A program made the position numbers and the translations under genes. A DNA stretch of 64,000 nt from a virus (lineage: Duplodnaviria; Heunggongvirae; Uroviricota; Caudoviricetes). Below are positions 10,042-63,717 of this stretch, piece by piece (the stretch's first letter is position 1; each line of letters starts with the position of its first letter). The stretch is from the IMG/VR virus record IMGVR_UViG_3300023179_004209, positions 231,832-295,831 of that record. One strand, written 5' to 3'. The notes beneath the pieces were generated by a model. It saw nothing but the letters and a program-made list of their open reading frames with translations, ran no database searches and had not been told where the DNA came from.

Positions 10042-10064
10042 CCCCTAGGATAAAGCCATAGGGG
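10042..10064. repeat. IS end hairpin CCCCTAGG-ATAAAG-CCATAGGGG (right end, overlaps tnpB stop)
   Basis: 8-bp stem with A bulge; near-identical copy at 11323-11345. Confidence 0.6.
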
Positions 10065-11211
10065 CTTGTAATGCTGTTGCTTTCACAACAGGCTTACATA
10101 CATTTGGCTGGTTGACGACAGCCTGCCCGTAAGTCAGGTAATTAGTCTGTGATACGGGAAGTTTGGACAATTTAGCAATATTGATTGCCGCATTAATGTC
10201 CGCATCATAAATAAGTCCATTCTTAGAGTAAAATCTACAACCTCTTCTTTCTCCATCACGATTTCCAGTTACACTATCAATCTGTGATGTATAATAAGGG
10301 CGAACTAGTAGAACCAATTTACCTTGATTCTCTGCCTTATAGCTTATTACTCTACGAAGTTCAAATATTGGAACTTGTCCAATTGAACGCTTATTTTGAT
10401 ATTTATTTTTTTTCTTTTTTATACCGACAAGATTTTCAAGCACGATTGTATCTGCTTCTGTGTTTAAAACTTCATTAGCAATCAAATGTGTTTGATTTCT
10501 ATTTTTGTTAGATTCTTTATGTTTTAACTTACGAAGATGTCTTCTGGCACTTTTAGTGCTTTTGGATTTGAGACTATCTTTTAAATGTCTCAATCTACGC
10601 TTATCTCCATTAAACTTTCTATCAATAATTATTCTACCATCACTACAAGCTGCATTACGACGAATGCCGATATCTACTCCTAAAGCGAGTTTTTGTTTTA
10701 ATGGTTCTTTAGGTTTATTATCAAATGTAAATGATATAAATAATTTACCATCATTTTCATAAATTAGAGGATCTGTATATTCATATTTGTCCAATAATTC
10801 CTTTAGTTTAGGATACACTACAAATTTAAATGATTGTCTTCCAGAAGTAGTAGTTATACGGATTGAATATTTATCAGTTTTGTTTTTTGAATAAAGTCTT
10901 TTATCTAAACGCATGGAAAGGTTTTTCTTTTCAATTGATTTTTTTAATCTGTGTTTATTTGACTTTGTAGATTTATAACTTGATAAACATTCTTGTTCTG
11001 CTTTAATAATAACTTGTGATGGTATATTTGGATATTGTTTTCTAATGTTATTATAAACTTTAGAATGTAAAACTAACAAACTATTTTTTGTTTCATTGAA
11101 TTGATGTTGTGAAGCAAAATTAAATACAACTTTATGCATTTCAAGAATTGACTTTAAACTATCAAAGTCTTCTTGATTTTTCATTAAAAGTTGTGTATTA
11201 TATGATATCAC
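10045..11211 (-). CDS. tnpB: TnpB (OrfB) RuvC-like RNA-guided nuclease family protein
   Basis: RuvC-I GVDIGIRRNAA, RuvC-II IVLENLVG, RuvC-III YDADINAAINIAK; zinc-finger Cys mostly lost. Confidence 0.75.
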   Translation of the reverse strand: MISYNTQLLMKNQEDFDSLKSILEMHKVVFNFASQHQFNETKNSLLVLHSKVYNNIRKQYPNIPSQVIIKAEQECLSSYKSTKSNKHRLKKSIEKKNLSMRLDKRLYSKNKTDKYSIRITTTSGRQSFKFVVYPKLKELLDKYEYTDPLIYENDGKLFISFTFDNKPKEPLKQKLALGVDIGIRRNAACSDGRIIIDRKFNGDKRRLRHLKDSLKSKSTKSARRHLRKLKHKESNKNRNQTHLIANEVLNTEADTIVLENLVGIKKKKNKYQNKRSIGQVPIFELRRVISYKAENQGKLVLLVRPYYTSQIDSVTGNRDGERRGCRFYSKNGLIYDADINAAINIAKLSKLPVSQTNYLTYGQAVVNQPNVCKPVVKATALQAPMALS

Positions 11212-21715: not shown

Positions 21716-23092
21716 ATGAATTTGAACTTTGAAGGTCTCCTTGAACCGCAGAAAAATCACTGCCTCAACCTCCTCTCCAGTCTCTTCACCAACGGATTTG
21801 CATTCGATGCAAGTCCCACTGGCACCGGCAAAACCTACTGTGCGTCATGGGTCGCCAAGAACTACGGTGCTTCCGTTGTAGTTCTCTGTCCCAAGAGTGT
21901 TCAAAAGAACTGGTTTGACACTCTCAAGAGCTTTGGTGTAGATAATCCTATCGTTATGACTTTTGAACGATTGGTTCGTGGTAATACTGAGTATTACAGT
22001 TTCAATATGAGTGATTATCTTAATCGTAAGACTATTTGGAAGTCTGAAGGTATTGAAGTTAACTTCCCCAAGAATAGTCTGGTTATTCTGGATGAAGTAC
22101 ATAAGTGTAAAGGTAAAAAGAGTCTTGCCGGTGAATGTCTTATTGCACTTAAGAATGCTGGATACAAGTTGTTGATGCTTAGTGCCAGTGCTGCTACCAA
22201 TGTTACTGAAATGAAGGCATTTGGTTATGCCACTCTTCTTCATAATGGTTATGGATATTTTGATTTCTGTAAGGATAACGGTGTTGATTTCAACCGTTTT
22301 GGTGCAATGAGTTGGGATGCAGATGCTCGTAAGTGTAAGGATGGTATGCTTCGTATCCATAACACTCTGTATAACACTGTTAATTGTGCCAGCCGAATGA
22401 ATCGTAAGGATTTTGGTGATATCTTCCCAGATAACCAAGTTATTGCCGATTCTTTTGATCTTGGTTCCAATACTTCTAAGTTGAAGTCTGTTTATGCCGA
22501 AATGGAATATGAGTTGATGAATTTGGAGGAGGATTCCAAGGAATATAGTGAACACGTTTTCGCTATTATTATGAAAGCTCGTCGTAATAGTGAAATTCTC
22601 AAGGTTCCTTCTATGGTCAACTGGATTATTGATATGTACCGTGAGGGTATTAGTCCTGTCGTGTTTGTTAATTTCACTGAAACTTTGGAAGCTATTGAAA
22701 AGCGTCTCATTGAATCTGGTGAGTTTACTGGTAAGATCAGTAAGATTGTTGGTGGTCAGTCTCCTAAGACTCGTAATAATGAGATTGAAAACTTCCAGAA
22801 GGATATTACCCGTGTTTGTTTGGTGATGATTCCCGCTGGTGCTGCTAGTGTTAGTCTTCATGACTTGAATGGTAATTATCCCCGTCATACACTGATTAAT
22901 CCTAGTTACAGTGCTATTAACACTCTTCAATCACTTGGTCGTTGTCATCGTGTTAATGGTAAGACTCCGGTGATTCAACGATTCTTCTTTGCTGAAGGTG
23001 TTGAAATTGAACAAAAGATGCGTCAACGAGTTAGTTTGCGTCTGACCAATCTGGATTGTTTGAATGATGGTGATTTTGCTATTAACAATTAA
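21716..23092 (+). CDS. SF2 DExH-box helicase
   Basis: motif I SPTGTGKT, II ILDEVHK, III SASAAT, VI QSLGRCHR. Confidence 0.75.
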   Translation: MNLNFEGLLEPQKNHCLNLLSSLFTNGFAFDASPTGTGKTYCASWVAKNYGASVVVLCPKSVQKNWFDTLKSFGVDNPIVMTFERLVRGNTEYYSFNMSDYLNRKTIWKSEGIEVNFPKNSLVILDEVHKCKGKKSLAGECLIALKNAGYKLLMLSASAATNVTEMKAFGYATLLHNGYGYFDFCKDNGVDFNRFGAMSWDADARKCKDGMLRIHNTLYNTVNCASRMNRKDFGDIFPDNQVIADSFDLGSNTSKLKSVYAEMEYELMNLEEDSKEYSEHVFAIIMKARRNSEILKVPSMVNWIIDMYREGISPVVFVNFTETLEAIEKRLIESGEFTGKISKIVGGQSPKTRNNEIENFQKDITRVCLVMIPAGAASVSLHDLNGNYPRHTLINPSYSAINTLQSLGRCHRVNGKTPVIQRFFFAEGVEIEQKMRQRVSLRLTNLDCLNDGDFAINN

Positions 23093-24215: not shown

Positions 24216-25991
24216 ATGGCAATCAATATTTTTACACATATACGTAGAGGTTTATATGATAATGTTTACAATTGTATAGAAAAAGAAAAGGTGGATGTCA
24301 ATCAAAGAGATGATGACACTGGCAATCCACCACTGGTTGTTGCGGTAGAAGAAAACCAAATAGAAATAGTCAGATTACTATTAAACCACGGTGCTGATGC
24401 CAATTGTAAAGATTGGACCAGTAAAAATACCGCATTGGATGTAGCTGAACAAAAAGGTTTCAAAAATATTGCAGAAGTATTACAACAAAGAGGTGCAAAA
24501 TACAGTAGTGGTAGTAGTTTCCATTTAGCTGCAAAGAATGGTGATATCGTTTCTATCGAAGAAATGTTGAATAAAGGATGTGATATCAATGAAGTTGACG
24601 CAGGTAAAGGTTGGACTGCTCTACATTACGCTGTTAATTATGGACAAAAACACTTGGTTGAATATTTGATTATAAGAGGTGCAGATGTCAACAAGAAAGA
24701 TTTCTTGGGTAAAAACAATCCTATTGATGTATTATCCAACACCAATAGAGGTGAAATTGTTAAATTATTGAATAAATACGGTGCTAAATCCGCAGGTGGT
24801 GTTAGTATTCATTTCTGCGCAGAAACTGGTGATTTTGAAGGTGTACAATCATTCTTTGATAAAGATGGTAAAGTTAATGGTAGAGATGAAAAGAATGGAT
24901 GGATGCCATTACATTATGCCGTTAACGCTAACGATGTTGATATGGTGGAGTTTTTGGTACATTTGGGAGCAAATGTTAACGGTGCAGATTTTAAAGGTGA
25001 AATTGCTCCGTTAGACATTGCATTCAAGACTGGGAATGTAGAAATGCAAACATATCTACAATCCAAAGGTGCGCAAAGAAAGAAGAAACATGATACTGGT
25101 GGTGGTGGCAAAGATGTAACCATCTATATTACAGAAGAAGTCAAGAAACAAATTGCAATGTTTATTGAAAAGCGTGAAAAAGAAGAAGCTGCAATAAAGA
25201 AACATGAAGAAGAACAAACTGCAAAAGAACCTAAAAAGAAAGATGCACCAGCTAAGAAAATTAACTGGAAAGATTTCTTGAAACTTAAAGATATTCCAGT
25301 TGTAGAAAAGAAAGAAGAAAAGAAGGTAGAAGTGGTTAAACCCGTCAAACAAATTGTCAAGAAAGTTGAACAAGTTGATATAGAAGTTAAATCCAGTAGA
25401 TTACAATTGGATGTTGAACAAGAAGGTTACATATTCTTCATGGACATTGTTGCTTATAGTAAGAAAACAACTGATGAACAAAAGAAAGCTTGTAAAGATT
25501 TGGGTGCATTGGTTAAGTCTACAATGCAATATAAAACCGCTAATGCTCTTGAAAAGTTAATTATATTACCTACTGGTGACGGTATGGTATTGGGATTCTT
25601 TACTTATTTGGAAGATGCAATGAATTGTGCTATTGCTATAGCTAAAGCAGTAAAGGATAGACCAGATTTACAAATGAGAATGGGTGTACATTGTGGATCA
25701 GTAATTCCAATGGAAGACATCAATGGTAATCTTAACATTAGTGGTGACGGTATTAATTATGCTCAAAGAGTAATGGATGCGGGTGAAAGTAATCATTTAT
25801 TGGTTAGTTCAGCAGTAATGTTAAAGTATGACCGACCACCATATGTTTTGGTAAACGATCTGGGAGATGTAGTTGTAAAACATGGTGTAGTGATGCATTT
25901 GTATAGTTTACATGGTAGTGACTTTGGCAATAAAGCATTTCCATCTAGTAGAGTGAAGAAGGCAGAACCTACTGATTCAATCAAAAAATAG
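24216..25991 (+). CDS. ankyrin-repeat protein fused to class III nucleotidyl cyclase homology domain
   Basis: about 8 ANK repeats (GADANCKD, TALHYAV, PLHYAV...). K/E-rich linker. CHD motifs FFMDIVAYS, PTGDGMV, MRMGVHCGSV, SGDGINYAQRV. Confidence 0.65.
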   Translation: MAINIFTHIRRGLYDNVYNCIEKEKVDVNQRDDDTGNPPLVVAVEENQIEIVRLLLNHGADANCKDWTSKNTALDVAEQKGFKNIAEVLQQRGAKYSSGSSFHLAAKNGDIVSIEEMLNKGCDINEVDAGKGWTALHYAVNYGQKHLVEYLIIRGADVNKKDFLGKNNPIDVLSNTNRGEIVKLLNKYGAKSAGGVSIHFCAETGDFEGVQSFFDKDGKVNGRDEKNGWMPLHYAVNANDVDMVEFLVHLGANVNGADFKGEIAPLDIAFKTGNVEMQTYLQSKGAQRKKKHDTGGGGKDVTIYITEEVKKQIAMFIEKREKEEAAIKKHEEEQTAKEPKKKDAPAKKINWKDFLKLKDIPVVEKKEEKKVEVVKPVKQIVKKVEQVDIEVKSSRLQLDVEQEGYIFFMDIVAYSKKTTDEQKKACKDLGALVKSTMQYKTANALEKLIILPTGDGMVLGFFTYLEDAMNCAIAIAKAVKDRPDLQMRMGVHCGSVIPMEDINGNLNISGDGINYAQRVMDAGESNHLLVSSAVMLKYDRPPYVLVNDLGDVVVKHGVVMHLYSLHGSDFGNKAFPSSRVKKAEPTDSIKK

Positions 25992-36378: not shown

Positions 36379-36759
36379 ATGCATATACAATATCAGACCG
36401 TAACATTAGAAGGAATAAAGAAAACCGCAGATATAATGTATGGTATATACGAAATGGAGCATTCTGACAATGCTCCATTTAAGCGTTGGGTATGGACCGA
36501 TAGTGTATTTGGTGGGGTGTTACAAAAAATAGATACTATTGATTTTAGAATCAAGAGTCCTATTGACAATCTTTTAATAGTAAATGATAGTGTAAAGTTT
36601 TATCTTAAAAAGGATATACTCTGTAATTTGAGAATAGTAACTACTAACTATACAGAGTTAAAGATGAAATTGGATGAAAAATATAAAATAGATAATGACC
36701 CGAGAGATTTAGGAATTCTTATATTTGGTGTTAGCATTGGTTCATCTGAATTATTCTAA
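36379..36759 (+). CDS. hypothetical protein
   Basis: ORF. Confidence 0.5.
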   Translation: MHIQYQTVTLEGIKKTADIMYGIYEMEHSDNAPFKRWVWTDSVFGGVLQKIDTIDFRIKSPIDNLLIVNDSVKFYLKKDILCNLRIVTTNYTELKMKLDEKYKIDNDPRDLGILIFGVSIGSSELF

Positions 36760-40929: not shown

Positions 40930-41571
40930 ATGTTAAAATCATTATTATCACTACTATTAACTACAACAATATTTGCAGCGGAATTTGAATCGGTAAATTA
41001 TTATACAAAGAATTACCTATTTGACGCTCAAATATATTCTGTCAATACTTTCGTATCCGAAAACACACTTAGCCATCAACTAGGTGATTTTACGCCGCAT
41101 CTTGACTATGTACAATACCAAGGTTTGGATAAATATAAAGAAAGTGACTTTGGATTTGGTAGTGAATATAAACTAACAGATAAACTAAATTTGGATGTAG
41201 GTAGTTGGTATTACTATTATTACAGTGCAGGTGACCATTATTTTGAACCATACGCATCATTAACTTATGATTGGATAGTATCACCAACATTATATTTTAG
41301 TATGATAACATACAATAATACACCTAGAGCAACAATAAGCTTTGATTATAACAAAGATTTTAATGAAAAGCTGCATTTGAATGTAAGACCAGTGATTGGT
41401 ACTGCAGACTATGATGTAAGATATGGTTATTATGGTATAGTATTTGGTTTGGATTACAATGTAAATAAGAATTTTACATTGTTTACTGTTACAGAAGTTG
41501 ATAAACCTTTTAGTTCACCTGACGATAGTATCGTATACACTTATTCATTTGGAATCAAATTATCCCTATGA
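40930..41571 (+). CDS. secreted Tyr-rich beta-rich protein (possible outer-membrane protein)
   Basis: signal peptide MLKSLLSLLLTTTIFAA; alternating aromatic pattern. Confidence 0.5.
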   Translation: MLKSLLSLLLTTTIFAAEFESVNYYTKNYLFDAQIYSVNTFVSENTLSHQLGDFTPHLDYVQYQGLDKYKESDFGFGSEYKLTDKLNLDVGSWYYYYYSAGDHYFEPYASLTYDWIVSPTLYFSMITYNNTPRATISFDYNKDFNEKLHLNVRPVIGTADYDVRYGYYGIVFGLDYNVNKNFTLFTVTEVDKPFSSPDDSIVYTYSFGIKLSL

Positions 41572-43007
41572 AATTTCTTAAATTCAATTTGAGATTCGCA
41601 TTATCTACCAGCACACTATTCATTTTAGTGTTGGTAAGTATGGTATATTTCTTTTTGTTAATATTTGCAATTGAAGATATTGCAAAGAATAGTTTGAAAA
41701 GAAGTTTAAATACCTCGGTGAATATTTGTAGCAGTATTCTTGACCCAAATGAAATTGAAAAGTTAACTGAATATGAACAAGAAAAAAGCGAAGTATTTAT
41801 CAATTACAGAAAGTCTATCAAAGAAATAAAGAAAGAAGTAGAAGATATTAAATTTGTTTATATTGTAAGACAAACGGGTACAAATATCACTTATATAATA
41901 GATTGTGGTGATGATGTATCCGAACAAGCTAAATTGGGTGAAATATATGATGATGCGGGTGATGGATTGAAAGAATTATTTAACAATCCAGTTGAAGGTG
42001 TAACATTTGAGAAAGAATATTATACAGACAAGTGGGGTACATTTTTATCCGCATATAAACCAATATTTAAAAACGGTAAAATCATATATGCAGTTTGCAG
42101 TGATATCAAGTCAGTTGATGTTGAAAAGTATATATCAAATTATAAAAAGAAGTTTACTTGTGCATTTTTTACATTGTTAATTGTTATATTTCCAATCATA
42201 TGTTGGATAACAAATATGATTAGAAGACCACTTAATAAGTTAAGAGATGAAATTCTCAAGTTAAAAGATTTGGATGTAGATGAACATATTGATTTTAAGA
42301 GTAGTATCAGTGAAGTAAATGATATGATTGACGCAACTGATAAGGTAAAAACTGGTTTAAGATCATTTTCAAAGTATGTACCTGACAAGGTTGTAAAACA
42401 ATTGATAAGTCAAGGTAAGGATGCAAAAATTGGTGGGGAAAAAGAATATGTAACAATACTATTTAGTGACATTGAAGGATTTACAAGTATATCTGAAAAC
42501 AATGATACTCAAGAAGTTGTAACTGCATTAAATGAATATTTTGATATCTATGTACATTGTTTGGAAGAAAGTGGTGCAACTGTTGATAAATTCATTGGTG
42601 ACGCTGTAATGTCATTTTGGAATGCACCAAGTAAAGTTGAAAACCATGAATTTATTGCGGTCAAAACTGCAATGGAAATTGTCAAAGAAATTAATAAATT
42701 GAATCAAAAATGGAAAACTGAAGGTAAGAAATTTACATTCAAAACCAGAATAGGTATCAATTCTGGTGAAGTTATTGTCGGTAATATTGGTTCGACAAAC
42801 CGTATCAATTATACTGTTACTGGTGATCCTGTTAATTTGGCATCAAGATTAGAAGCGTCAAATAAACAATACAATACAACAATTTTAGTAAGTGAATCTG
42901 TTTATAATAAAACAAAAGAGTCAATTGATTATAATTATATTGACACAGTGAAGGTAAAAGGAAAAGAAATATATGTAAAAGTATATCAACCCGTTAAACT
43001 CAAGTAA
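41568..43007 (+). CDS. transmembrane sensor class III adenylyl/guanylyl cyclase
   Basis: TM1, about 150-aa extracytoplasmic domain, TM2, linker, then CHD. CHD motifs FSDIEGFTSISE, KFIGDAVMSFWNAP, RIGINSGEVIVGNIGS, TVTGDPVNLASRLE. Confidence 0.75.
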   Translation: MKFLKFNLRFALSTSTLFILVLVSMVYFFLLIFAIEDIAKNSLKRSLNTSVNICSSILDPNEIEKLTEYEQEKSEVFINYRKSIKEIKKEVEDIKFVYIVRQTGTNITYIIDCGDDVSEQAKLGEIYDDAGDGLKELFNNPVEGVTFEKEYYTDKWGTFLSAYKPIFKNGKIIYAVCSDIKSVDVEKYISNYKKKFTCAFFTLLIVIFPIICWITNMIRRPLNKLRDEILKLKDLDVDEHIDFKSSISEVNDMIDATDKVKTGLRSFSKYVPDKVVKQLISQGKDAKIGGEKEYVTILFSDIEGFTSISENNDTQEVVTALNEYFDIYVHCLEESGATVDKFIGDAVMSFWNAPSKVENHEFIAVKTAMEIVKEINKLNQKWKTEGKKFTFKTRIGINSGEVIVGNIGSTNRINYTVTGDPVNLASRLEASNKQYNTTILVSESVYNKTKESIDYNYIDTVKVKGKEIYVKVYQPVKLK

Positions 43008-45823: not shown

Positions 45824-45852
45824 TTGACAAAAGAATAAATCGTGGTAAGATA
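45824..45852 (+). promoter_or_regulatory. promoter TTGACA-N17-TAAGAT followed by AGTAGTAAGTTCTTTAAAA
   Basis: as above. Confidence 0.5.
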
Positions 45853-45936: not shown

Positions 45937-46368
45937 ATGGAACATAGTAAACAAAAAGGCAATTTAGGATTTTCTGCAACTCTCAAAGAATTACATAAAC
46001 TTGGATATAATGTATTTACTGAAGTTGGAGATTACTCTAAAATAGATATGATAGTTGAGGTAAAGAATAAATTAATTAAACTTCAAGTTAAATACATTAC
46101 GGATTCAAATGGAAAAGTAACTTTAAACTTACAAAAAAGTGGACCAAATGGGTATAGATACAAGTATACAGAACTTGATATAGATTTGTTCAGTATTTAC
46201 TTACCTACTTTAGATAAAGTAATTTTTGTACCTGCTAAATTAGCTTGTAAGAATACTAAAGCATTTAGCATTAGATTTAATGAAAGTAAAAATCATCAAA
46301 GTAAACATATTAATTATATAAGTGAATTTGAAGATTTAAATAAAACACTAAACAATTTAGTTCTTTAA
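45937..46368 (+). CDS. hypothetical protein embedded in the tRNA cluster
   Basis: ORF; stop codon lies within the GTTCTTTAAAA motif. Confidence 0.5.
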   Translation: MEHSKQKGNLGFSATLKELHKLGYNVFTEVGDYSKIDMIVEVKNKLIKLQVKYITDSNGKVTLNLQKSGPNGYRYKYTELDIDLFSIYLPTLDKVIFVPAKLACKNTKAFSIRFNESKNHQSKHINYISEFEDLNKTLNNLVL

Positions 46369-46532: not shown

Positions 46533-46721
46533 TTTTGTTTGTCCGTTGCTTAAAAGAAACGGAATGGTGGAGGGTAAATAACCAAAACACCCCTAGAGTT
46601 GGAAGTTCTCTTAAAAAACTTCTTGGTTGCGGGGATGAGTCATGGTATACTTTGTTTGTTGGGTGGACAAAGTATTCAATAAACACACCCAACACAATTT
46701 ATATAGTTCTTTAAAATTCAA

Positions 46722-46970: not shown

Positions 46971-46998
46971 TTGACAAAACATCAATGTGTGATAAGAT
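46971..46998 (+). promoter_or_regulatory. promoter TTGACA-N16-TAAGAT
   Basis: drives short RNA ending at terminator 47109-47141. Confidence 0.5.
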
Positions 46999-47141: not shown

Positions 47142-47166
47142 AGTTAGTTCTTTAACAAAACAATTT

Positions 47167-47252
47167 GCGGGGTGTCAGAAGTCTGGTATCTGGCTACGCT
47201 CATAACGTAGTGCCATTTGGCCTCGGAGGTTCAAATCCTCCCCCCGCTACCA
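47167..47252 (+). tRNA. long-variable-arm tRNA with anticodon CAT (identity uncertain)
   Basis: D-stem CAGA/TCTG; anticodon arm CTACG-CTCATAA-CGTAG; 14-nt variable arm; T-arm GGAGG-TTCAAAT-CCTCC; 6-bp acceptor GCGGGG/CCCCGC; ends ..TACCA. Confidence 0.5.
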
Positions 47253-47258
47253 TTTAGT

Positions 47259-47350
47259 GGCCTCAAGATGTAAGGTGCATGGGGAGACTTATAATCTCTA
47301 TAATCGCTCGATTGGCGTTCTGGGCAGTTCGATTCTGCATGAGGCTACCA
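47259..47350 (+). tRNA. type II tRNA, Leu/Tyr-like body with anticodon loop CTTATAA (apparent anticodon TAT)
   Basis: acceptor GGCCTCA/TGAGGCT; anticodon stem GGAGA/TCTCT; long variable arm; T-loop TTCGATT; A+CCA. Confidence 0.5.
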
Positions 47351-47529: not shown

Positions 47530-47613
47530 GGGTGTGTGATGTAATGGCAGCCATGCAGCACTCAAAATGCTGTGGAGAAATCCGTGGGGGTTCAAGTCCC
47601 TCCATACCCACCA
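47530..47613 (+). tRNA. tRNA-Leu (anticodon CAA)
   Basis: acceptor GGGTGTG/CATACCC; anticodon arm CAGCA-CTCAAAA-TGCTG; long variable arm; T-loop TTCAAGT; A+CCA. Confidence 0.6.
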
Positions 47614-47660: not shown

Positions 47661-48350
47661 ATGTCTTCCAAAATACTACTTATTAGTATGAAAAAGATAG
47701 ATATACAAGAGTTAACAATTGCAACAAAAACATCTATATCATACGCTGAAGTTTTAAAAAAGTTAAGACTGAAGCAAAGTGGTTCAATGCAAAGTCGTAT
47801 TAAGAACGAGATTAAAAATCTTGGACTAGATATTAGTCACTTTACTGGACAAGCGTGGTGTAGAGGTAAAAATTCTTATCAAGACAAAAGAATAAGAAAC
47901 AAATATTCTGATGAAATTATTTTTACTGAAAATAGTAATGTTTCAAACGTTGTAGTAAAAAACAGATTGAAGTCAAATCCAAATTATATACATAAATGTG
48001 AATTATGTTCTATTAAAGAGTGGTATGACCCGTTTGAAAACAAAATCAAACCAGTAAATTTAGAACTTGACCATATAAATGGCAATGAAAGAGATAACAG
48101 AAAAGAAAATTTAAGATTGATTTGTTCTAATTGTCATAGTTTTACTCCTACATATAAAGGGAGAAACATTAATAAAACTTTTAGAAATGGTGAAAAGAAA
48201 ATATCTGATGATGTTTTGATAGAACAATTAAAAACAAAAAACATAAGACAAACTTTAATTTCAGTTGGAATGTCTGCTTCTGGTGAAAATTATGAAAGAT
48301 GTAAAATTTTGAAAAACCAGTTGACAACAAAGAATGATGTGGTAAGATGA
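47661..48350 (+). CDS. HNH homing endonuclease inserted between tRNA genes
   Basis: ELDHINGNERDNRKENLRLICSNCHSF HNH motif. Confidence 0.7.
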   Translation: MSSKILLISMKKIDIQELTIATKTSISYAEVLKKLRLKQSGSMQSRIKNEIKNLGLDISHFTGQAWCRGKNSYQDKRIRNKYSDEIIFTENSNVSNVVVKNRLKSNPNYIHKCELCSIKEWYDPFENKIKPVNLELDHINGNERDNRKENLRLICSNCHSFTPTYKGRNINKTFRNGEKKISDDVLIEQLKTKNIRQTLISVGMSASGENYERCKILKNQLTTKNDVVR

Positions 48351-48387: not shown

Positions 48388-48476
48388 GGGCAAGTGGCGA
48401 AATTGGAGAACCGCAAGGGACTTAAAATCCCTTACATTAGAAACGCTGTGGGTTCGAATCCCACCTTGCCTACCAT
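48388..48476 (+). tRNA. tRNA-Leu (anticodon TAA)
   Basis: acceptor GGGCAAG/CTTGCCT; anticodon arm AGGGA-CTTAAAA-TCCCT; long variable arm; T-arm GTGGG-TTCGAAT-CCCAC; A+CCA. Confidence 0.65.
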
Positions 48477-48499
48477 TTTTTGATAGTTCTTTAACAATT

Positions 48500-48810
48500 T
48501 AAGATAGTGGCGGAACAACAATTAGTTTAGTTGTAACGCACAATATATGGCGTTGAAAAACGTTGTATATTGGTTGGAGTAAGAATCATGGAGGGTAAGT
48601 CTATGGAGAATTTGAGGTCGTTCAACCTCAAATTTGAGCGTATCGGGACCGTAGCTAAAATTTAAATGATAAATCGTAGCCCGTTGTGGGGAAAACAAAA
48701 TCCCATCAGTCATCAACACAAGGAGTAATTACCCGTGTGGACTGTGGATGAATAACCAGTCATGATTAAGAAACTTGGAGGTAATCATTAGTCCTTCCTA
48801 TTTTGATTTA
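48500..48810 (+). ncRNA. uncharacterized structured non-coding segment
   Basis: no ORF; hairpins GAGGTCGTTCAACCTC, CGTTGAAAAACG; preceded by GTTCTTTAACA motif. Confidence 0.25.
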
Positions 48811-48814
48811 ATAT

Positions 48815-48887
48815 GCGGGTCAAGTGTAAAGAGAGCACGTTAGTCTACCAGACTAAAAGGCGAAATGCAAAGTTCGGACCCGCTCCA
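48815..48887 (+). ncRNA. tRNA-like RNA lacking an anticodon loop
   Basis: 7-bp acceptor GCGGGTC/GACCCGC + T + CCA. D-like hairpin GTG/CAC. Middle arm is 6-7-bp stem TTAGTCT/AGACTAA with 3-5-nt loop. T-like hairpin CGAA/TTCG. Confidence 0.35.
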
Positions 48888-48897
48888 TTTTAGTAAT

Positions 48898-48990
48898 GGC
48901 TCTGTGATGTATGGTGCATGGGCAGACTTATAATCTGTATAATCCCTAGATTTGGGTGCTGATAGGGTTCAATTCCCTACGGAGCCACCA
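48898..48990 (+). tRNA. type II tRNA paralog of 47259..47350, anticodon loop CTTATAA (apparent anticodon TAT)
   Basis: acceptor GGCTCTG/CGGAGCC; anticodon stem GCAGA/TCTGT; about 24-nt variable region; T-arm TAGGG-TTCAATT-CCCTA; A+CCA. Confidence 0.5.
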
Positions 48991-49000
48991 TTTTAAATAT

Positions 49001-49112
49001 GGATCAATAGCTCAATTGGTTAGAGCGAAGAACTCTTTCTCTGCTTATAAACTAAAAGTATAAGTAGGAAATAATTCTTGGGTTATCGGTTCAAGTCCGG
49101 TTTGATCCACCA
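49001..49112 (+). tRNA. tRNA gene with about 35-nt insertion in the anticodon loop (possibly CAT anticodon after removal)
   Basis: acceptor GGATCAA/TTGATCC + A + CCA. D-arm GCTC-AATTGGTTA-GAGC. Anticodon stem AAGAA/TTCTT encloses 42 nt beginning CT and ending AA. T-arm ATCGG-TTCAAGT-CCGGT. Confidence 0.5.
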
Positions 49113-55672: not shown

Positions 55673-56764
55673 ATGAAGATTGACATTCAAAAGGTTGACC
55701 TCACCCAATTTATGGTGCATGAACATTCACTTAATGGTGAAATTGTCCAGTTGATTCAGCCCCAACATATTGGCACTAAATGGCATCAAGACAACAAGCA
55801 TATGCGTAGTGTAATTGTGAATTATGCAGGTGAAGTTATCAGTGCAGGTTTTCCTAAGTTTACCAACTGGGGTGAGAATCCTGATCACTTTCCTGTTCCT
55901 AATTCATTGAAGCATTGCACCGTTGTTGAAAAGCTTGATGGTTCATTGTTGATTGTTAGTAAGTATAATGGTCAATATATTCTACGTACCCGTGGAACTG
56001 TTGATGCTTCTACTATGGCTAATGGTCATGAACTTGAAATTTTCAAGAACACTATTTTATCCAAGTTGGCTGATAACAATGATACTTGGGATTATTCAGT
56101 GCTTTTTGAGTGGTTGTCTCCTATCAACAAGATTGTTTTGAACTACGGTGATGAACCTTCTTGGAGATTGATTGGGTTTATTAACCACATCAACTATTCA
56201 CTTGCACAACAAGATATGTTGGACGCTATGGCTAAGAAGTATGGATTTGATCGTCCTCCTACCTATACTTTTTCTGATGTTCAAGATCTGTTAAAGGATG
56301 TTGACCAATGGAGAGGTAAGGAAGGTGTAGTTGTTTATTCAAAGAATGACCAAATGCTTCACAAGGTAAAGGGTGCTTGGTATCTTGCTCTACATCATAT
56401 GAAGAGCGAGTTGTCAAACATTGAGAAGGTTATAGATGTATGGTTGGAACAGAGTATGCCTGACTATCAGACTTTCTATAGTTATATCTTTACCACCTTT
56501 GATTACGAATTGGCTGAACAGTGCCGTGGTATGATTAGCCGTATTTGTGATGCTAAGAAGGAAGTGGATATGATTGTGGTTGGTATGAATGAATTTGTGA
56601 ATAACAGACTCAAGACTCTACCTACTCGTAAGTTACAGGCTGAACAAGTAATTTCAGCTTATGGTAATACTAATAGAGCTTCATTTTTGTTCAAGTTGCT
56701 TGATGGTAAGTCGTTAGGCAAAGAAGAATATAAGAAGTTACTATTTCAAGTATTGAAAAACTAA
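55673..56764 (+). CDS. ATP-dependent RNA ligase, T4 Rnl1-like
   Basis: motif I EKLDGSLL (KxDGS as in T4 RnlA KEDGSL); later EGVVVYSK and HKVKGAWY. Confidence 0.6.
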   Translation: MKIDIQKVDLTQFMVHEHSLNGEIVQLIQPQHIGTKWHQDNKHMRSVIVNYAGEVISAGFPKFTNWGENPDHFPVPNSLKHCTVVEKLDGSLLIVSKYNGQYILRTRGTVDASTMANGHELEIFKNTILSKLADNNDTWDYSVLFEWLSPINKIVLNYGDEPSWRLIGFINHINYSLAQQDMLDAMAKKYGFDRPPTYTFSDVQDLLKDVDQWRGKEGVVVYSKNDQMLHKVKGAWYLALHHMKSELSNIEKVIDVWLEQSMPDYQTFYSYIFTTFDYELAEQCRGMISRICDAKKEVDMIVVGMNEFVNNRLKTLPTRKLQAEQVISAYGNTNRASFLFKLLDGKSLGKEEYKKLLFQVLKN

Positions 56765-62582: not shown

Positions 62583-62819
62583 ATGTTTAGTAATAAAAAT
62601 ATTGTAAAGTATTGTGCAAAGTATTTTGTTCTTTTGACGGTGGGTGCTTACGTTTTTAACACATCCGTAATATTCATTAATCAAAAGAGTGACGTTGCAA
62701 ATCTTATCGGGTCCGCACTTTTTGCTGGACTTTTCGTTGGGACGCTGTTAATCTTAAAAAGTGATGTGACCAAGTTGGTCAAGAACATCAACAAAACTGA
62801 AAATAAAGAAAATGAATAA
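62583..62819 (+). CDS. small membrane protein (2 TM)
   Basis: hydrophobic segments. Confidence 0.45.
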   Translation: MFSNKNIVKYCAKYFVLLTVGAYVFNTSVIFINQKSDVANLIGSALFAGLFVGTLLILKSDVTKLVKNINKTENKENE

Positions 62820-63717
62820 GAAAATCGTTAGTCTGATTGCTAGTGTCGTCGCCATCGCCGCCTTTACTGGTTGTGATCGGGTTGAACCGGGATATGTTGG
62901 TATTAAGGTGAACCAGTGGGGTAGTCAGAAAGGAGTCAATGATTTTCCGTTGGTTACTGGTGGTGTGTTCTACAACCCCATCACTGAGGACATCTACAAG
63001 TTCCCAACCTTTATGCAAAATGCTGTGTGGGATCGTGAACGTGGTAGTAAGGAAAGTCCCGGTGATGACAGTGTGACCTTTAATAGTATTGAAGGTGCTG
63101 TTGTTAATGCTGACATTGCTCTTGCTTATACGTTTGTGGCAGAGAAAGTTCCTCAGATCTTTGTTGAATTCCGTCAGTCACCAGAGATTATTACTCATGG
63201 ATTTATGCGAAATGAGATTAATAACGCATTCAACCGTGTTGCTAGTACCATGAAGGCTAGTGATATCTTTGGTGAGAGAAAGCAGTACCTTCTTGACAAT
63301 GTTAAGAGTAATCTTAACGCACAACTTGGTCCCAAGGGATTTAGGTTTGAATTGATCAGTTTCCATGGTGGTCTTCGTGTTGATCAGAGTGTTCAGACCC
63401 GTATCAACGCAGTCCTAGAGGCTAGTCAAAAGGCTATTGAAGCTGAAACCAAGGTTCGTCAAAGTAAGGCTGAGGCGGATCAAGTGATTGAAAAGGCCCG
63501 TGGTGAGAAGGAAAGTAACATTGCTAAGGCAGAGGGTGAAGCACGTAGTATTGCTCTTAAGGCAGAAGCACAGTCCAAGGCTAACTTGGTTTTGGCTCAG
63601 TCTCTAACCCCGGCACTGGTTCAGTATGAAGCTCTTCAGAGGTGGGATGGTAAGTTGCCGGTATATAATGGAGGTGGTGTTGTACCGTTCGTTAACATTG
63701 GAAACACCAACCGATAA
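62812..63717 (+). CDS. SPFH/band-7 domain lipoprotein (HflK/C-prohibitin-like)
   Basis: lipobox AAFTGC; C-terminal Ala/Glu/Lys-rich coiled coil QVIEKARGEKESNIAKAEGEARSIALKAEAQSKANLVLAQ. Confidence 0.55.
   Translation: MNKKIVSLIASVVAIAAFTGCDRVEPGYVGIKVNQWGSQKGVNDFPLVTGGVFYNPITEDIYKFPTFMQNAVWDRERGSKESPGDDSVTFNSIEGAVVNADIALAYTFVAEKVPQIFVEFRQSPEIITHGFMRNEINNAFNRVASTMKASDIFGERKQYLLDNVKSNLNAQLGPKGFRFELISFHGGLRVDQSVQTRINAVLEASQKAIEAETKVRQSKAEADQVIEKARGEKESNIAKAEGEARSIALKAEAQSKANLVLAQSLTPALVQYEALQRWDGKLPVYNGGGVVPFVNIGNTNR

Follow-up and report, generated by a model that had tools for sequence, protein, structure and literature searches.

A long variable arm is, in bacteria and their phages, a hallmark of the tRNAs for leucine, serine, tyrosine and selenocysteine (Sec). 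Two genes, termed here copy A and copy B, in a 64,000-nt stretch of the phage record IMGVR_UViG_3300023179_004209 (the window; all positions are in its numbering) join such an arm to the isoleucine anticodon UAU, raising the question of which amino acid these tRNAs carry and what the codon AUA means in the phage that encodes them. A first-pass annotation of this DNA had proposed that copy A is a leucine-bodied tRNA that recodes or mistranslates AUA or, alternatively, a genuine but aberrant Ile tRNA serving AT-rich, AUA-rich genes. The evidence favours the latter proposal, and we conclude that both genes are probably functional phage tRNAs, class-II-shaped tRNA-Ile(UAU) species that would be charged with Ile by the host isoleucyl-tRNA synthetase (IleRS) and would read AUA.

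ARAGORN called eight tRNA genes in the window, two of which were tRNA-Ile(tat) genes on the plus strand. Both calls coincided in coordinates with the two genes of the first-pass annotation, which had described copy A as a long-variable-arm tRNA with the anticodon UAU and with A73 followed by CCA, and both placed the anticodon at UAU without any shift of the loop. The two genes and their parts, with scores from a covariance model of the family described below, are as follows.

47259..47350, plus strand: copy A, class-II-shaped tRNA(UAU) of 92 nt, 3-bp-D-stem subfamily (ARAGORN; family covariance model, 88.7 bits)
47288..47294, plus strand: copy A anticodon loop CUUAUAA, anticodon UAU at 47290..47292 (sequence, ARAGORN)
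47300..47322, plus strand: copy A variable region, 23 nt (sequence; family covariation), comprising linker AUAA at 47300..47303, a stem strand of U plus CGC, loop UCGAUUG at 47308..47314 (GAU at 47310..47312), the strand GCG plus U, and linker UCUG
48898..48990, plus strand: copy B, class-II-shaped tRNA(UAU) of 93 nt (ARAGORN; Rfam tRNA model, 39.3 bits against a gathering score of 29; family covariance model, 98.1 bits)
48927..48933, plus strand: copy B anticodon loop CUUAUAA, anticodon UAU at 48929..48931 (sequence, ARAGORN)
48939..48962, plus strand: copy B variable region (sequence; family parse), comprising linker AUAA at 48939..48942, a stem strand of U plus CCC, loop UAGAUUU at 48947..48953 (GAU at 48949..48951), the strand GGG plus U, and linker GCUGA

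Read from the sequence, copy A has the acceptor stem GGCCUCA/UGAGGCU with a G1.U72 pair, A73 and an encoded CCA, a D stem of 3 bp (AUG/CAU) enclosing the loop UAAGGUG, the anticodon stem GGAGA/UCUCU, and the T arm GGCAG-UUCGAUU-CUGCA. Copy B follows the same plan, including A73 and the encoded CCA, at ~77% identity to copy A, with compensatory changes in the acceptor, anticodon (G-C to C-G), variable (V; CGC/GCG to CCC/GGG) and T stems. As judged by ARAGORN and covariation, the general features of a cloverleaf are all present, namely a 7-bp acceptor stem, a D arm with GG, 5-bp anticodon and T stems, and CCA. A scan against Rfam returned nothing beyond tRNA for the two genes, the top match of copy A being tRNA-Sec at 25.7 bits, under the gathering score of 47. 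Minimum free energy (MFE) folding alone gave a five-arm cloverleaf for the member from L017 (L-numbers label the fetched related loci that were compared with the window) and not for copies A and B (z = -0.3 and -0.6), for which we consequently relied on covariation. Two other folds were rejected. Using the V hairpin as the anticodon arm, with GAU as anticodon, was discarded as a decoding fold because the UAU loop is canonical and begins one nucleotide after the D stem, whereas the V loop lacks U33 and a purine at position 37 (R37); and in the 8/4 fold of the bacterial allo-tRNAs the eighth acceptor pair is absent.

The two genes belong to a conserved family. A 31-nt pattern running from the D loop to the linker retrieved 15 IMG/VR contigs, looser patterns retrieved 34, 36 and then ~44 viral contigs, and a scan of metagenomes retrieved 117 stretches; together, at least 38 distinct sequences were obtained from ~164 fetched loci of viral and metagenomic origin, and ARAGORN called all fetched members as tRNA(tat) of 90-95 nt. 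Copy A was 100% identical in 46 fetched loci, some of which have flanks only 71-76% identical to the window, and this invariance excludes a sequencing error at the base that distinguishes its anticodon loop from that of a Leu tRNA, an error for which the first-pass annotation had allowed. In an alignment of 21 distinct members, 91.9% of the cells at paired positions were standard pairs, compared with 61% after shuffling and 34-43% in slid registers, and two-sided, compensatory changes were found in 20 of 26 pairs, spread over all five helices; a smaller covariation test was also made on 10 sequences. With a covariance model built from the family, members scored 84-104 bits and no other tRNA in the 334 kb of loci exceeded 44.5 bits, those for Leu, Ser and Tyr in the same phages among them (at most 41 bits for the phage's own Leu tRNAs). 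A diverged paralogue, found at L084 3279..3371 and L112 1524..1616, scored 68 bits; it has the V loop CGGACUA (GAC in place of GAU), the linker UUAA, a D loop without GG and the T loop AGCGUUA, and shares its locus with a member of the copy B type.

Megablast and blastn searches of 50,697 records of isolate phages yielded no match to the region or to the tRNAs, and tblastn searches of the same kind of phages with the ankyrin/cyclase protein and the helicase of the window yielded remote matches only. Among 185,579 cellular species genomes, two contigs of metagenome-assembled genomes were matched, one of them 99.98% identical to a viral contig and the other a 569-bp fragment. On these grounds the family is phage-restricted and the phage clade that carries it uncultured, and, as far as full-text searches of the literature show, which found no account of a long-arm tRNA-Ile in phages, the family is undescribed. 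Our search for a partner protein travelling with the tRNA in divergent phages (L017, L018, L022, L025, L027, L034, L051 and L070) found only homing-type nucleases in common.

Having delineated the family, we examined the extra arm and its relation to the anticodon. All members have a 7/5 acceptor/T branch, A73, CCA, GG in the D loop and a covarying 5-bp anticodon stem, and the anticodon loop seen in the window recurs in related phages, being CUUAUAA in 33 of 38 sequences, CUUAUAC in 3 and UUUAUAA in 2. The variable region measures 19-24 nt and opens with a 5' linker, (A/G)UAA, followed by a covarying 4-bp V stem (CGC/GCG, CCC/GGG, GCUC/GAGC, GCGC/GCGC, GCAC/GUGC and others), a 7-nt V loop and a 3' linker of 4-6 nt. 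The V loop conforms to Y-M-G-A-U-Y-N with GAU at its centre (UAGAUU 26, CAGAUU 4, UAGAUC 3, UCGAUU 2, CAGAUC 2 and CCGAUU 1), and never has U at the equivalent of position 33 or a purine at the equivalent of position 37. Two subfamilies can be distinguished: subfamily I combines U8 and A9 with a D stem of 4 bp and a 3' linker, ACGAU or ACGGU, that resembles a class I variable loop; in subfamily II, to which both window copies belong, the D stem has 3 bp and the V stem has a U.U pair at its base. Removal of either the V arm or the anticodon arm leaves a perfect class I tRNA. Part of the conservation of these motifs was imposed by the search patterns; the searches that recovered types A, B and C nevertheless left the V loop unconstrained, a scan in which the V loop was left free found no long-arm tRNA(UAU) lacking GAU, and an arm-only scan in which the anticodon was left free gave tRNA-like matches solely with UAU anticodons. 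These unconstrained scans indicate that arm and anticodon are coupled and, as the arm occurs only with UAU, it is best described as a putative Ile/AUA-specific accessory element.

Whether such a tRNA alters the genetic code can be read from the phage's own genes. AUA accounts for 342 of 17,210 codons (19.9 per 1000) and for 27% of Ile codons. It is unevenly distributed among genes (heterogeneity chi-square P = 2e-8), its usage varies inversely with gene GC content (rho = -0.73), and its share of Ile codons rises to 39% at 33-45 kb, the most AT-rich block; by gene, there are 0 in 458 codons of a helicase (21716..23092), 0 in 301 of a Band-7 gene (62812..63717), 1 in 363 of an RNA ligase and 10 in 126 at 36379..36759. 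We aligned open reading frames of the window codon by codon to relatives at 70-94% identity, counting each site-codon combination once. If AUA meant Leu, exchanges between AUA and UUA or CUA would be synonymous and those between AUA and AUU or AUC (AUY) would not. The exchanges observed, labelled according to the standard code, were as follows.

AUA to AUU: 42 of 236 sites, 0.178 per site, synonymous
GUA to GUU: 71 of 338 sites, 0.210 per site, synonymous
AUU to AUA: 64 of 474 sites, 0.135 per site, synonymous
AUU to AUC: 63 of 474 sites, 0.133 per site, synonymous
AUA to UUA: 10 of 236 sites, 0.042 per site, non-synonymous
GUA to UUA: 17 of 338 sites, 0.050 per site, non-synonymous

From AUA, exchange to AUU exceeded that to UUA (binomial P = 4.5e-6), and exchange to AUY exceeded that to UUA or CUA (61 versus 16, P = 1.2e-7). 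Exchange between AUA and Leu codons was not above ordinary Ile/Leu exchange, UUA to AUA occurring at 0.060 per site compared with 0.138 for CUU to AUU, and smaller codon tests and protein alignments at lower identity agreed in treating AUA as Ile. A second line of evidence came from the class III cyclase at 41568..43007. A word search for outgroups retrieved nothing outside the clade (75-96% identity), and a search of representatives provided 149 distant homologues (30-48% identical). Columns in which the phage gene has AUA contained Ile at a frequency of.36, Leu at.18 and Val at.15; the corresponding values were Ile.30 and Leu.19 for AUU/AUC columns and Leu.38 and Ile.20 for Leu-codon columns, a comparison that covers one protein and 14 AUA sites and is directional only (Fisher P = 0.33). 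AUA also occupies four strongly Ile-conserved positions of the cyclase (280, 297, 308 and 395), at which 77-114 of the 149 homologues have Ile. Taken together, the substitution and outgroup tests establish that the genetic code is unchanged and that AUA is Ile in this phage clade.

We then compared the family with the identity elements of bacterial tRNAs. Those listed for Ile are A73, C4-G69, U12-A23, G16/U20/U21, C29-G41, a modified C34 or G34, A35, U36, A37 and A38 (PMC9976931, Table 1). Among the 21 aligned members, A73 is present in 21 and U12-A23 in 20, while A35, U36, A37 and A38 are present in all as well as in copies A and B; C4-G69 is found in 14 members, including copy A, with U-A in its place in copy B. 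Several members of subfamily I have, as in E. coli tRNA-Ile, A1-U72, G2-C71 and the D stem GCUC/GAGC. In sister phages with flanking sequence ~90% identical to that of the window (L014, L019 and L030-L032), the copy B cassette has been replaced by one bearing an ordinary 77-nt tRNA(UAU) that is identical to E. coli tRNA-Ile(GAU) at 60 of 77 positions. The features of Tyr, Ser and Sec tRNAs are missing: where Tyr tRNAs have G34 and U35 and Ser tRNAs G73, the family has U34, A35 and A73, and the tRNA-Sec match of copy A lies below threshold. Genuine Tyr(GUA) and Ser tRNAs, moreover, occur alongside the family in L017, L027 and L006, arguing that its members are not Tyr or Ser tRNAs in disguise, and Ile(GAU) tRNAs also occur alongside it in some phages.

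Several observations weigh against an Ile role, in addition to the narrow scope of the cyclase comparison. C29-G41 is present in only 3 of 21 members, the G16 of the E. coli Ile set is mostly absent, and position 34 is an encoded U and not the G or lysidine of the bacterial Ile set. The combination of A73 with a large variable region fits the bacterial Leu determinants (PMC9976931, Table 1); A73 is common to both sets and does not discriminate between them. IleRS of the E. coli type charges UAU tRNAs poorly, while the Mycoplasma mobile type accepts UAU, and on E. coli ribosomes AUG, too, is read by UAU when this anticodon is unmodified (PMC3575796), from which it follows that an Ile role would need a permissive host enzyme, a modification or the help of the arm. 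Class II nematode nev-tRNA-Ile(UAU) is leucylated in vitro, with no mistranslation detected in vivo (PMC3333845, PMC4300185), a precedent showing that the codon evidence rules out recoding without proving Ile charging; a Leu-charged but little-used tRNA may thus be envisaged by analogy. Lastly, copy A was not reported by the general Rfam tRNA model and is atypical in having A8 and a G.A at the base of the T stem.

An extra arm need not be an obstacle to Ile charging. IleRS and leucyl-tRNA synthetase (LeuRS) are both class Ia enzymes with a similar mode of binding, and bacterial LeuRS needs no contact with the arm, so that by analogy an arm on the far side of the tRNA would plausibly be tolerated by IleRS. 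In related loci, long arms are also found on tRNAs other than Leu and Ser, with Pro, Thr and initiator-like CAU anticodons, which argues that such an arm need not change identity. The picture that we consider probable is therefore one in which the arm does not make a leucine tRNA, host IleRS charges copies A and B with Ile, and the charged tRNAs read AUA, which is abundant in the AT-rich genome. As to what the arm might contribute, it could aid a host IleRS that is poor at U34, guide or block a modification, or protect the tRNA from a tRNA-targeting nuclease.

The setting of the two genes is consistent with such a role. In order, the cluster comprises Arg(UCU), Lys(UUU), Glu(UUC), an initiator-like tRNA(CAU), copy A, Leu(CAA), an HNH endonuclease gene, Leu(UAA), copy B and an interrupted tRNA(CAU), and its anticodons fit the abundant A/U-ending codons of the phage. 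Elements of the cluster and other features of the window are listed below.

45824..45851, plus strand: third identical copy of the promoter module at 46971..46998, ahead of the tRNA groups
45937..46368, plus strand: PD-(D/E)XK endonuclease
46971..46998, plus strand: sigma-70-like promoter, TTGACA-N16(TG)-TAAGAT, upstream of tRNA(CAU), copy A and Leu(CAA)
47661..48350, plus strand: HNH endonuclease
48321..48348, plus strand: identical promoter module, upstream of Leu(UAA) and copy B
55673..56764, plus strand: T4 Rnl1-like RNA ligase (PF09511, 3.6e-15)
10045..11211, minus strand: TnpB gene (OrfB_IS605/Cas12f-like)
24216..25991: ankyrin-repeat protein with a C-terminal cyclase domain
41568..43007: second class III adenylate/guanylate cyclase

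The promoters were identified by consensus match only (10/12 with an extended -10), a scan from which function is inferred; the presence of three identical modules ahead of tRNA groups suggests that these are transcribed by host RNA polymerase. Copies A and B would then share repeated, strong promoters of the sigma-70 type with tRNAs for AGA, AAA, GAA, UUA and UUG and would serve codon supply, as phage tRNA clusters usually do. The ligase and the endonucleases in or near the cluster suggest functions in tRNA repair and homing. Spacers of the cluster contain sub-threshold Rfam matches to wcaG RNA (46533..46640, plus strand; 32 bits, gathering score 42) and manA RNA (48492..48716, plus strand; 17.9 bits), motifs known from phage and marine metagenomes, and positions 48484..48837 are 71% identical to L006 and L010. 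With more than 5,000 close relatives of the cyclase in metagenomes, the uncultured phage clade must be very abundant.

A more specific version of the Ile reading is that the arm acts as a second, non-decoding anticodon arm, displaying the GAU of the major tRNA-Ile so that an IleRS poor at U34 still charges the tRNA, while the UAU loop decodes. On such a view, the consistent lack of both a U33 equivalent and an R37 equivalent in the V loop would prevent its use as an anticodon by the ribosome. We regard this version as unlikely.

Also unlikely, in our judgement, is that the RNA is not primarily a decoder and serves instead as a decoy, a nuclease-resistant spare or a regulator directed against tRNA-targeting host defences, with the arm as bait or shield. 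T4 Rnl1-class ligases repair anticodon-nuclease damage in T4, and a ligase of this type is encoded in the window; related phage tRNAs of several specificities have gained extra arms, the arm-loop sequence is conserved in the manner of a protein-binding site, and most bacterial allo-tRNA(UAU) species were inactive in translation tests (PMC5389517). Such a function sits less easily with the retention, under covariation, of the acceptor stem, T loop, D-loop GG, A73, CCA and a canonical anticodon loop with A37 and A38, as expected of a ribosomal substrate, or with an anticodon that fits an abundant phage codon. An ordinary Ile-like tRNA(UAU) also stands in for copy B in the sister phages, and we know of no nuclease that is specific to tRNA-Ile.

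We consider it very unlikely that LeuRS, which is blind to the anticodon, charges the tRNA so that Leu is inserted at AUA, whether as recoding or as a deliberate device for mistranslation. Besides the shared Leu determinants and the nematode precedent discussed above, this proposal could draw on the anticodon loop, which is one substitution away from that of Leu(UAA), and on the D region. The D region had been described as common to the neighbouring tRNA-Leu genes, a likeness that holds loosely for copy B and Leu(CAA) at 47530 and does not hold for Leu(UAA) at 48388, and Gly and Arg tRNAs of related phages match about equally well. The anticodon is UAU and not that of a Leu tRNA (NAG/NAA), 5' halves of the tRNAs are about as similar to Arg, Gly, Thr, Met, Lys and Asn tRNAs as to Leu tRNAs, the D arm of most members, generic or Ile-like with a 4-bp stem and a 7-nt loop, is not of the Leu type (the D loops of the window's Leu tRNAs have 10-12 nt), and copy A lacks the U8 of the U8-A14 interaction that matters to LeuRS. 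The low scores of the phage Leu tRNAs with the family model likewise count against a Leu origin, and the premise that bacterial tyrosyl-tRNA synthetase, too, ignores the anticodon is wrong, G34 and U35 being Tyr determinants (PMC9976931, Table 1). Above all, AUA behaves as Ile in substitutions (P ~1e-6 to 1e-7), exchanging with Leu codons no more than Ile codons ordinarily do, and in conserved Ile columns, and Leu at 2% of codons, including Ile positions of a catalytic domain, would harm the phage's own proteins. A Leu-bodied tRNA that recodes or mistranslates AUA is accordingly unsupported: the codon evolves as a synonym of AUU and AUC and sits at Ile-conserved columns of the cyclase, the body is not specifically Leu-like, and many members have an Ile-like acceptor and D arm.

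That the genes are pseudogenes, chance folds or artefacts of sequencing or assembly, as the failure of copy A with the general Rfam model and the MFE folds of both copies might hint, is refuted by identical or covarying copies in ~164 independent loci from many metagenomes and by compensatory changes in every helix, and we give it negligible weight.

Comparison with known systems places the family apart from each of them. Class I tRNA-Ile(UAU), such as Mycoplasma mobile tRNA-Ile2(UAU) (PMC3575796), shares the CUUAUAA-type loop, A37, A38, A73, the 7/5 branch and the presumed reading of AUA as Ile, but has a 5-nt variable loop where the phage family has a 19-24-nt region with a structured arm and, in copies A and B, also a 3-bp D stem. 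The nematode nev-tRNA-Ile(UAU) (PMC3333845, PMC4300185) resembles the family in being class II, in its UAU anticodon and in occurring in a lineage where AUA stays Ile; nev-tRNAs, however, are eukaryotic, derived from tRNA-Leu and leucylated in vitro, whereas the phage family is not specifically Leu-like, has Ile determinants and carries its own GAU V-loop motif, and a derivation from Leu is unsupported by the mixed 5'-half matches and by model scores. Bacterial allo-tRNA(UAU) species (Mukai et al. 2017, PMC5389517) likewise have a long V arm, count UAU among their predominant anticodons and are known mainly from metagenomes, but differ in their 8/4 or 9/3 branch, a long D stem with a tetraloop and a Ser-like G73 or U73, compared with the 7/5 branch, normal GG D loop and A73 of the phage family. 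Within the window, tRNA-Leu(UAA) at 48388..48475 is like copies A and B in its class II length, in A73 and in a loop one base away (CUUAAAA), yet the family model gives it only 39.4 bits, compared with 88-98 for copies A and B, and its D loop is longer, its V-stem linkers are short and a GAU loop is absent. The standard bacterial solution for reading AUA as Ile is tRNA-Ile2, in which CAU is converted to lysidine-AU, and CAU tRNAs adjoin both copies in the cluster; that tRNA needs modification of C34 by TilS, whereas the phage family encodes U34 directly.

Other unusual tRNAs were found in the window and in related phages. A tRNA(CAU)-like gene at 49001..49112 (plus strand; Rfam tRNA, 55.1 bits), missed by ARAGORN, has its anticodon loop split directly after C34 by a 35-nt hairpin, CTC|TTTCTCTGCTTATAAACTAAAAGTATAAGTAGGAA|ATAA; in L001, L098, L122 and other loci the slot after copy B holds an uninterrupted homologue of 76-77 nt, and a similarly long gene is present at L016 9502..9615. 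The insert is much too small to be a group I intron; the gene may contain a short intron, be disrupted or act as a decoy. The initiator-like tRNA(CAU) at 47166..47252 (plus strand, 87 nt, UGCGGGG...CCCCGCU-A-CCA) has a U1xU72 mismatch and an extra arm of its own, GCC-AUUU-GGC; the corresponding mismatch in E. coli tRNA-fMet is C1xA72. Initiator-like tRNAs of 73-88 nt with U1xU72 occur in many related loci, some with arms of the GCGAAAGC type. Long arms accompany class I anticodons at L017 697..784 (Pro(UGG), 88 nt), L022 1792..1878 (Thr(CGU), 87 nt) and L022 6809..6890 (Thr(UGU), 82 nt), and the arm loops of these other long-arm tRNAs, of GAAA and AUUU types, are unrelated to the GAU loop. Extra arms seem to be gained more widely among these phage tRNAs.

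A second tRNA-like family was found on viral contigs of 85-416 kb (L041/L066, L046, L061 and L069; for example L046 2217..2300, minus strand). Its members combine a CUUAUAA loop and AUAA following the stem with a normal acceptor, a T arm and an ACCA end, and lack an ordinary D arm; a long-range stem (such as UACC/GGUA) appears to enclose the anticodon arm. ARAGORN made no call for these genes, which scored 37-42 bits with the family covariance model. Related phages also encode a tmRNA (L006 1678..2077 and L013 5990..6389, tag ANKKSKVISYNFTSKKTSKKSGLALAA) and near-complete tRNA sets. The stretches fetched for L006 and L010 cover 19 amino acids, with Ile covered by the long-arm tRNA(UAU) alone and no Tyr tRNA.

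A conserved and widespread phage-only tRNA that pairs a long arm with the Ile anticodon UAU breaks the rule by which long variable arms mark Leu, Ser, Tyr and Sec tRNAs. What appears to be new is the family itself, a class-II-shaped tRNA(UAU) known only from phages, together with a GAU-centred arm loop that is, as far as comparative evidence indicates, tied to the anticodon. It offers a natural test case of how IleRS, a close relative of LeuRS, handles an extra arm, of how U34 tRNAs read AUA but not AUG, and of the ways in which phages adapt tRNAs to a host or to withstand its defences. In annotation, genes of this kind can readily be mistaken for recoding tRNAs, and here the codon evidence is that the code is unchanged. 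Should the arm prove to be a mimic of IleRS identity, it would represent a new principle, a virus uncoupling tRNA identity from decoding, and would be a useful part for tRNA engineering.

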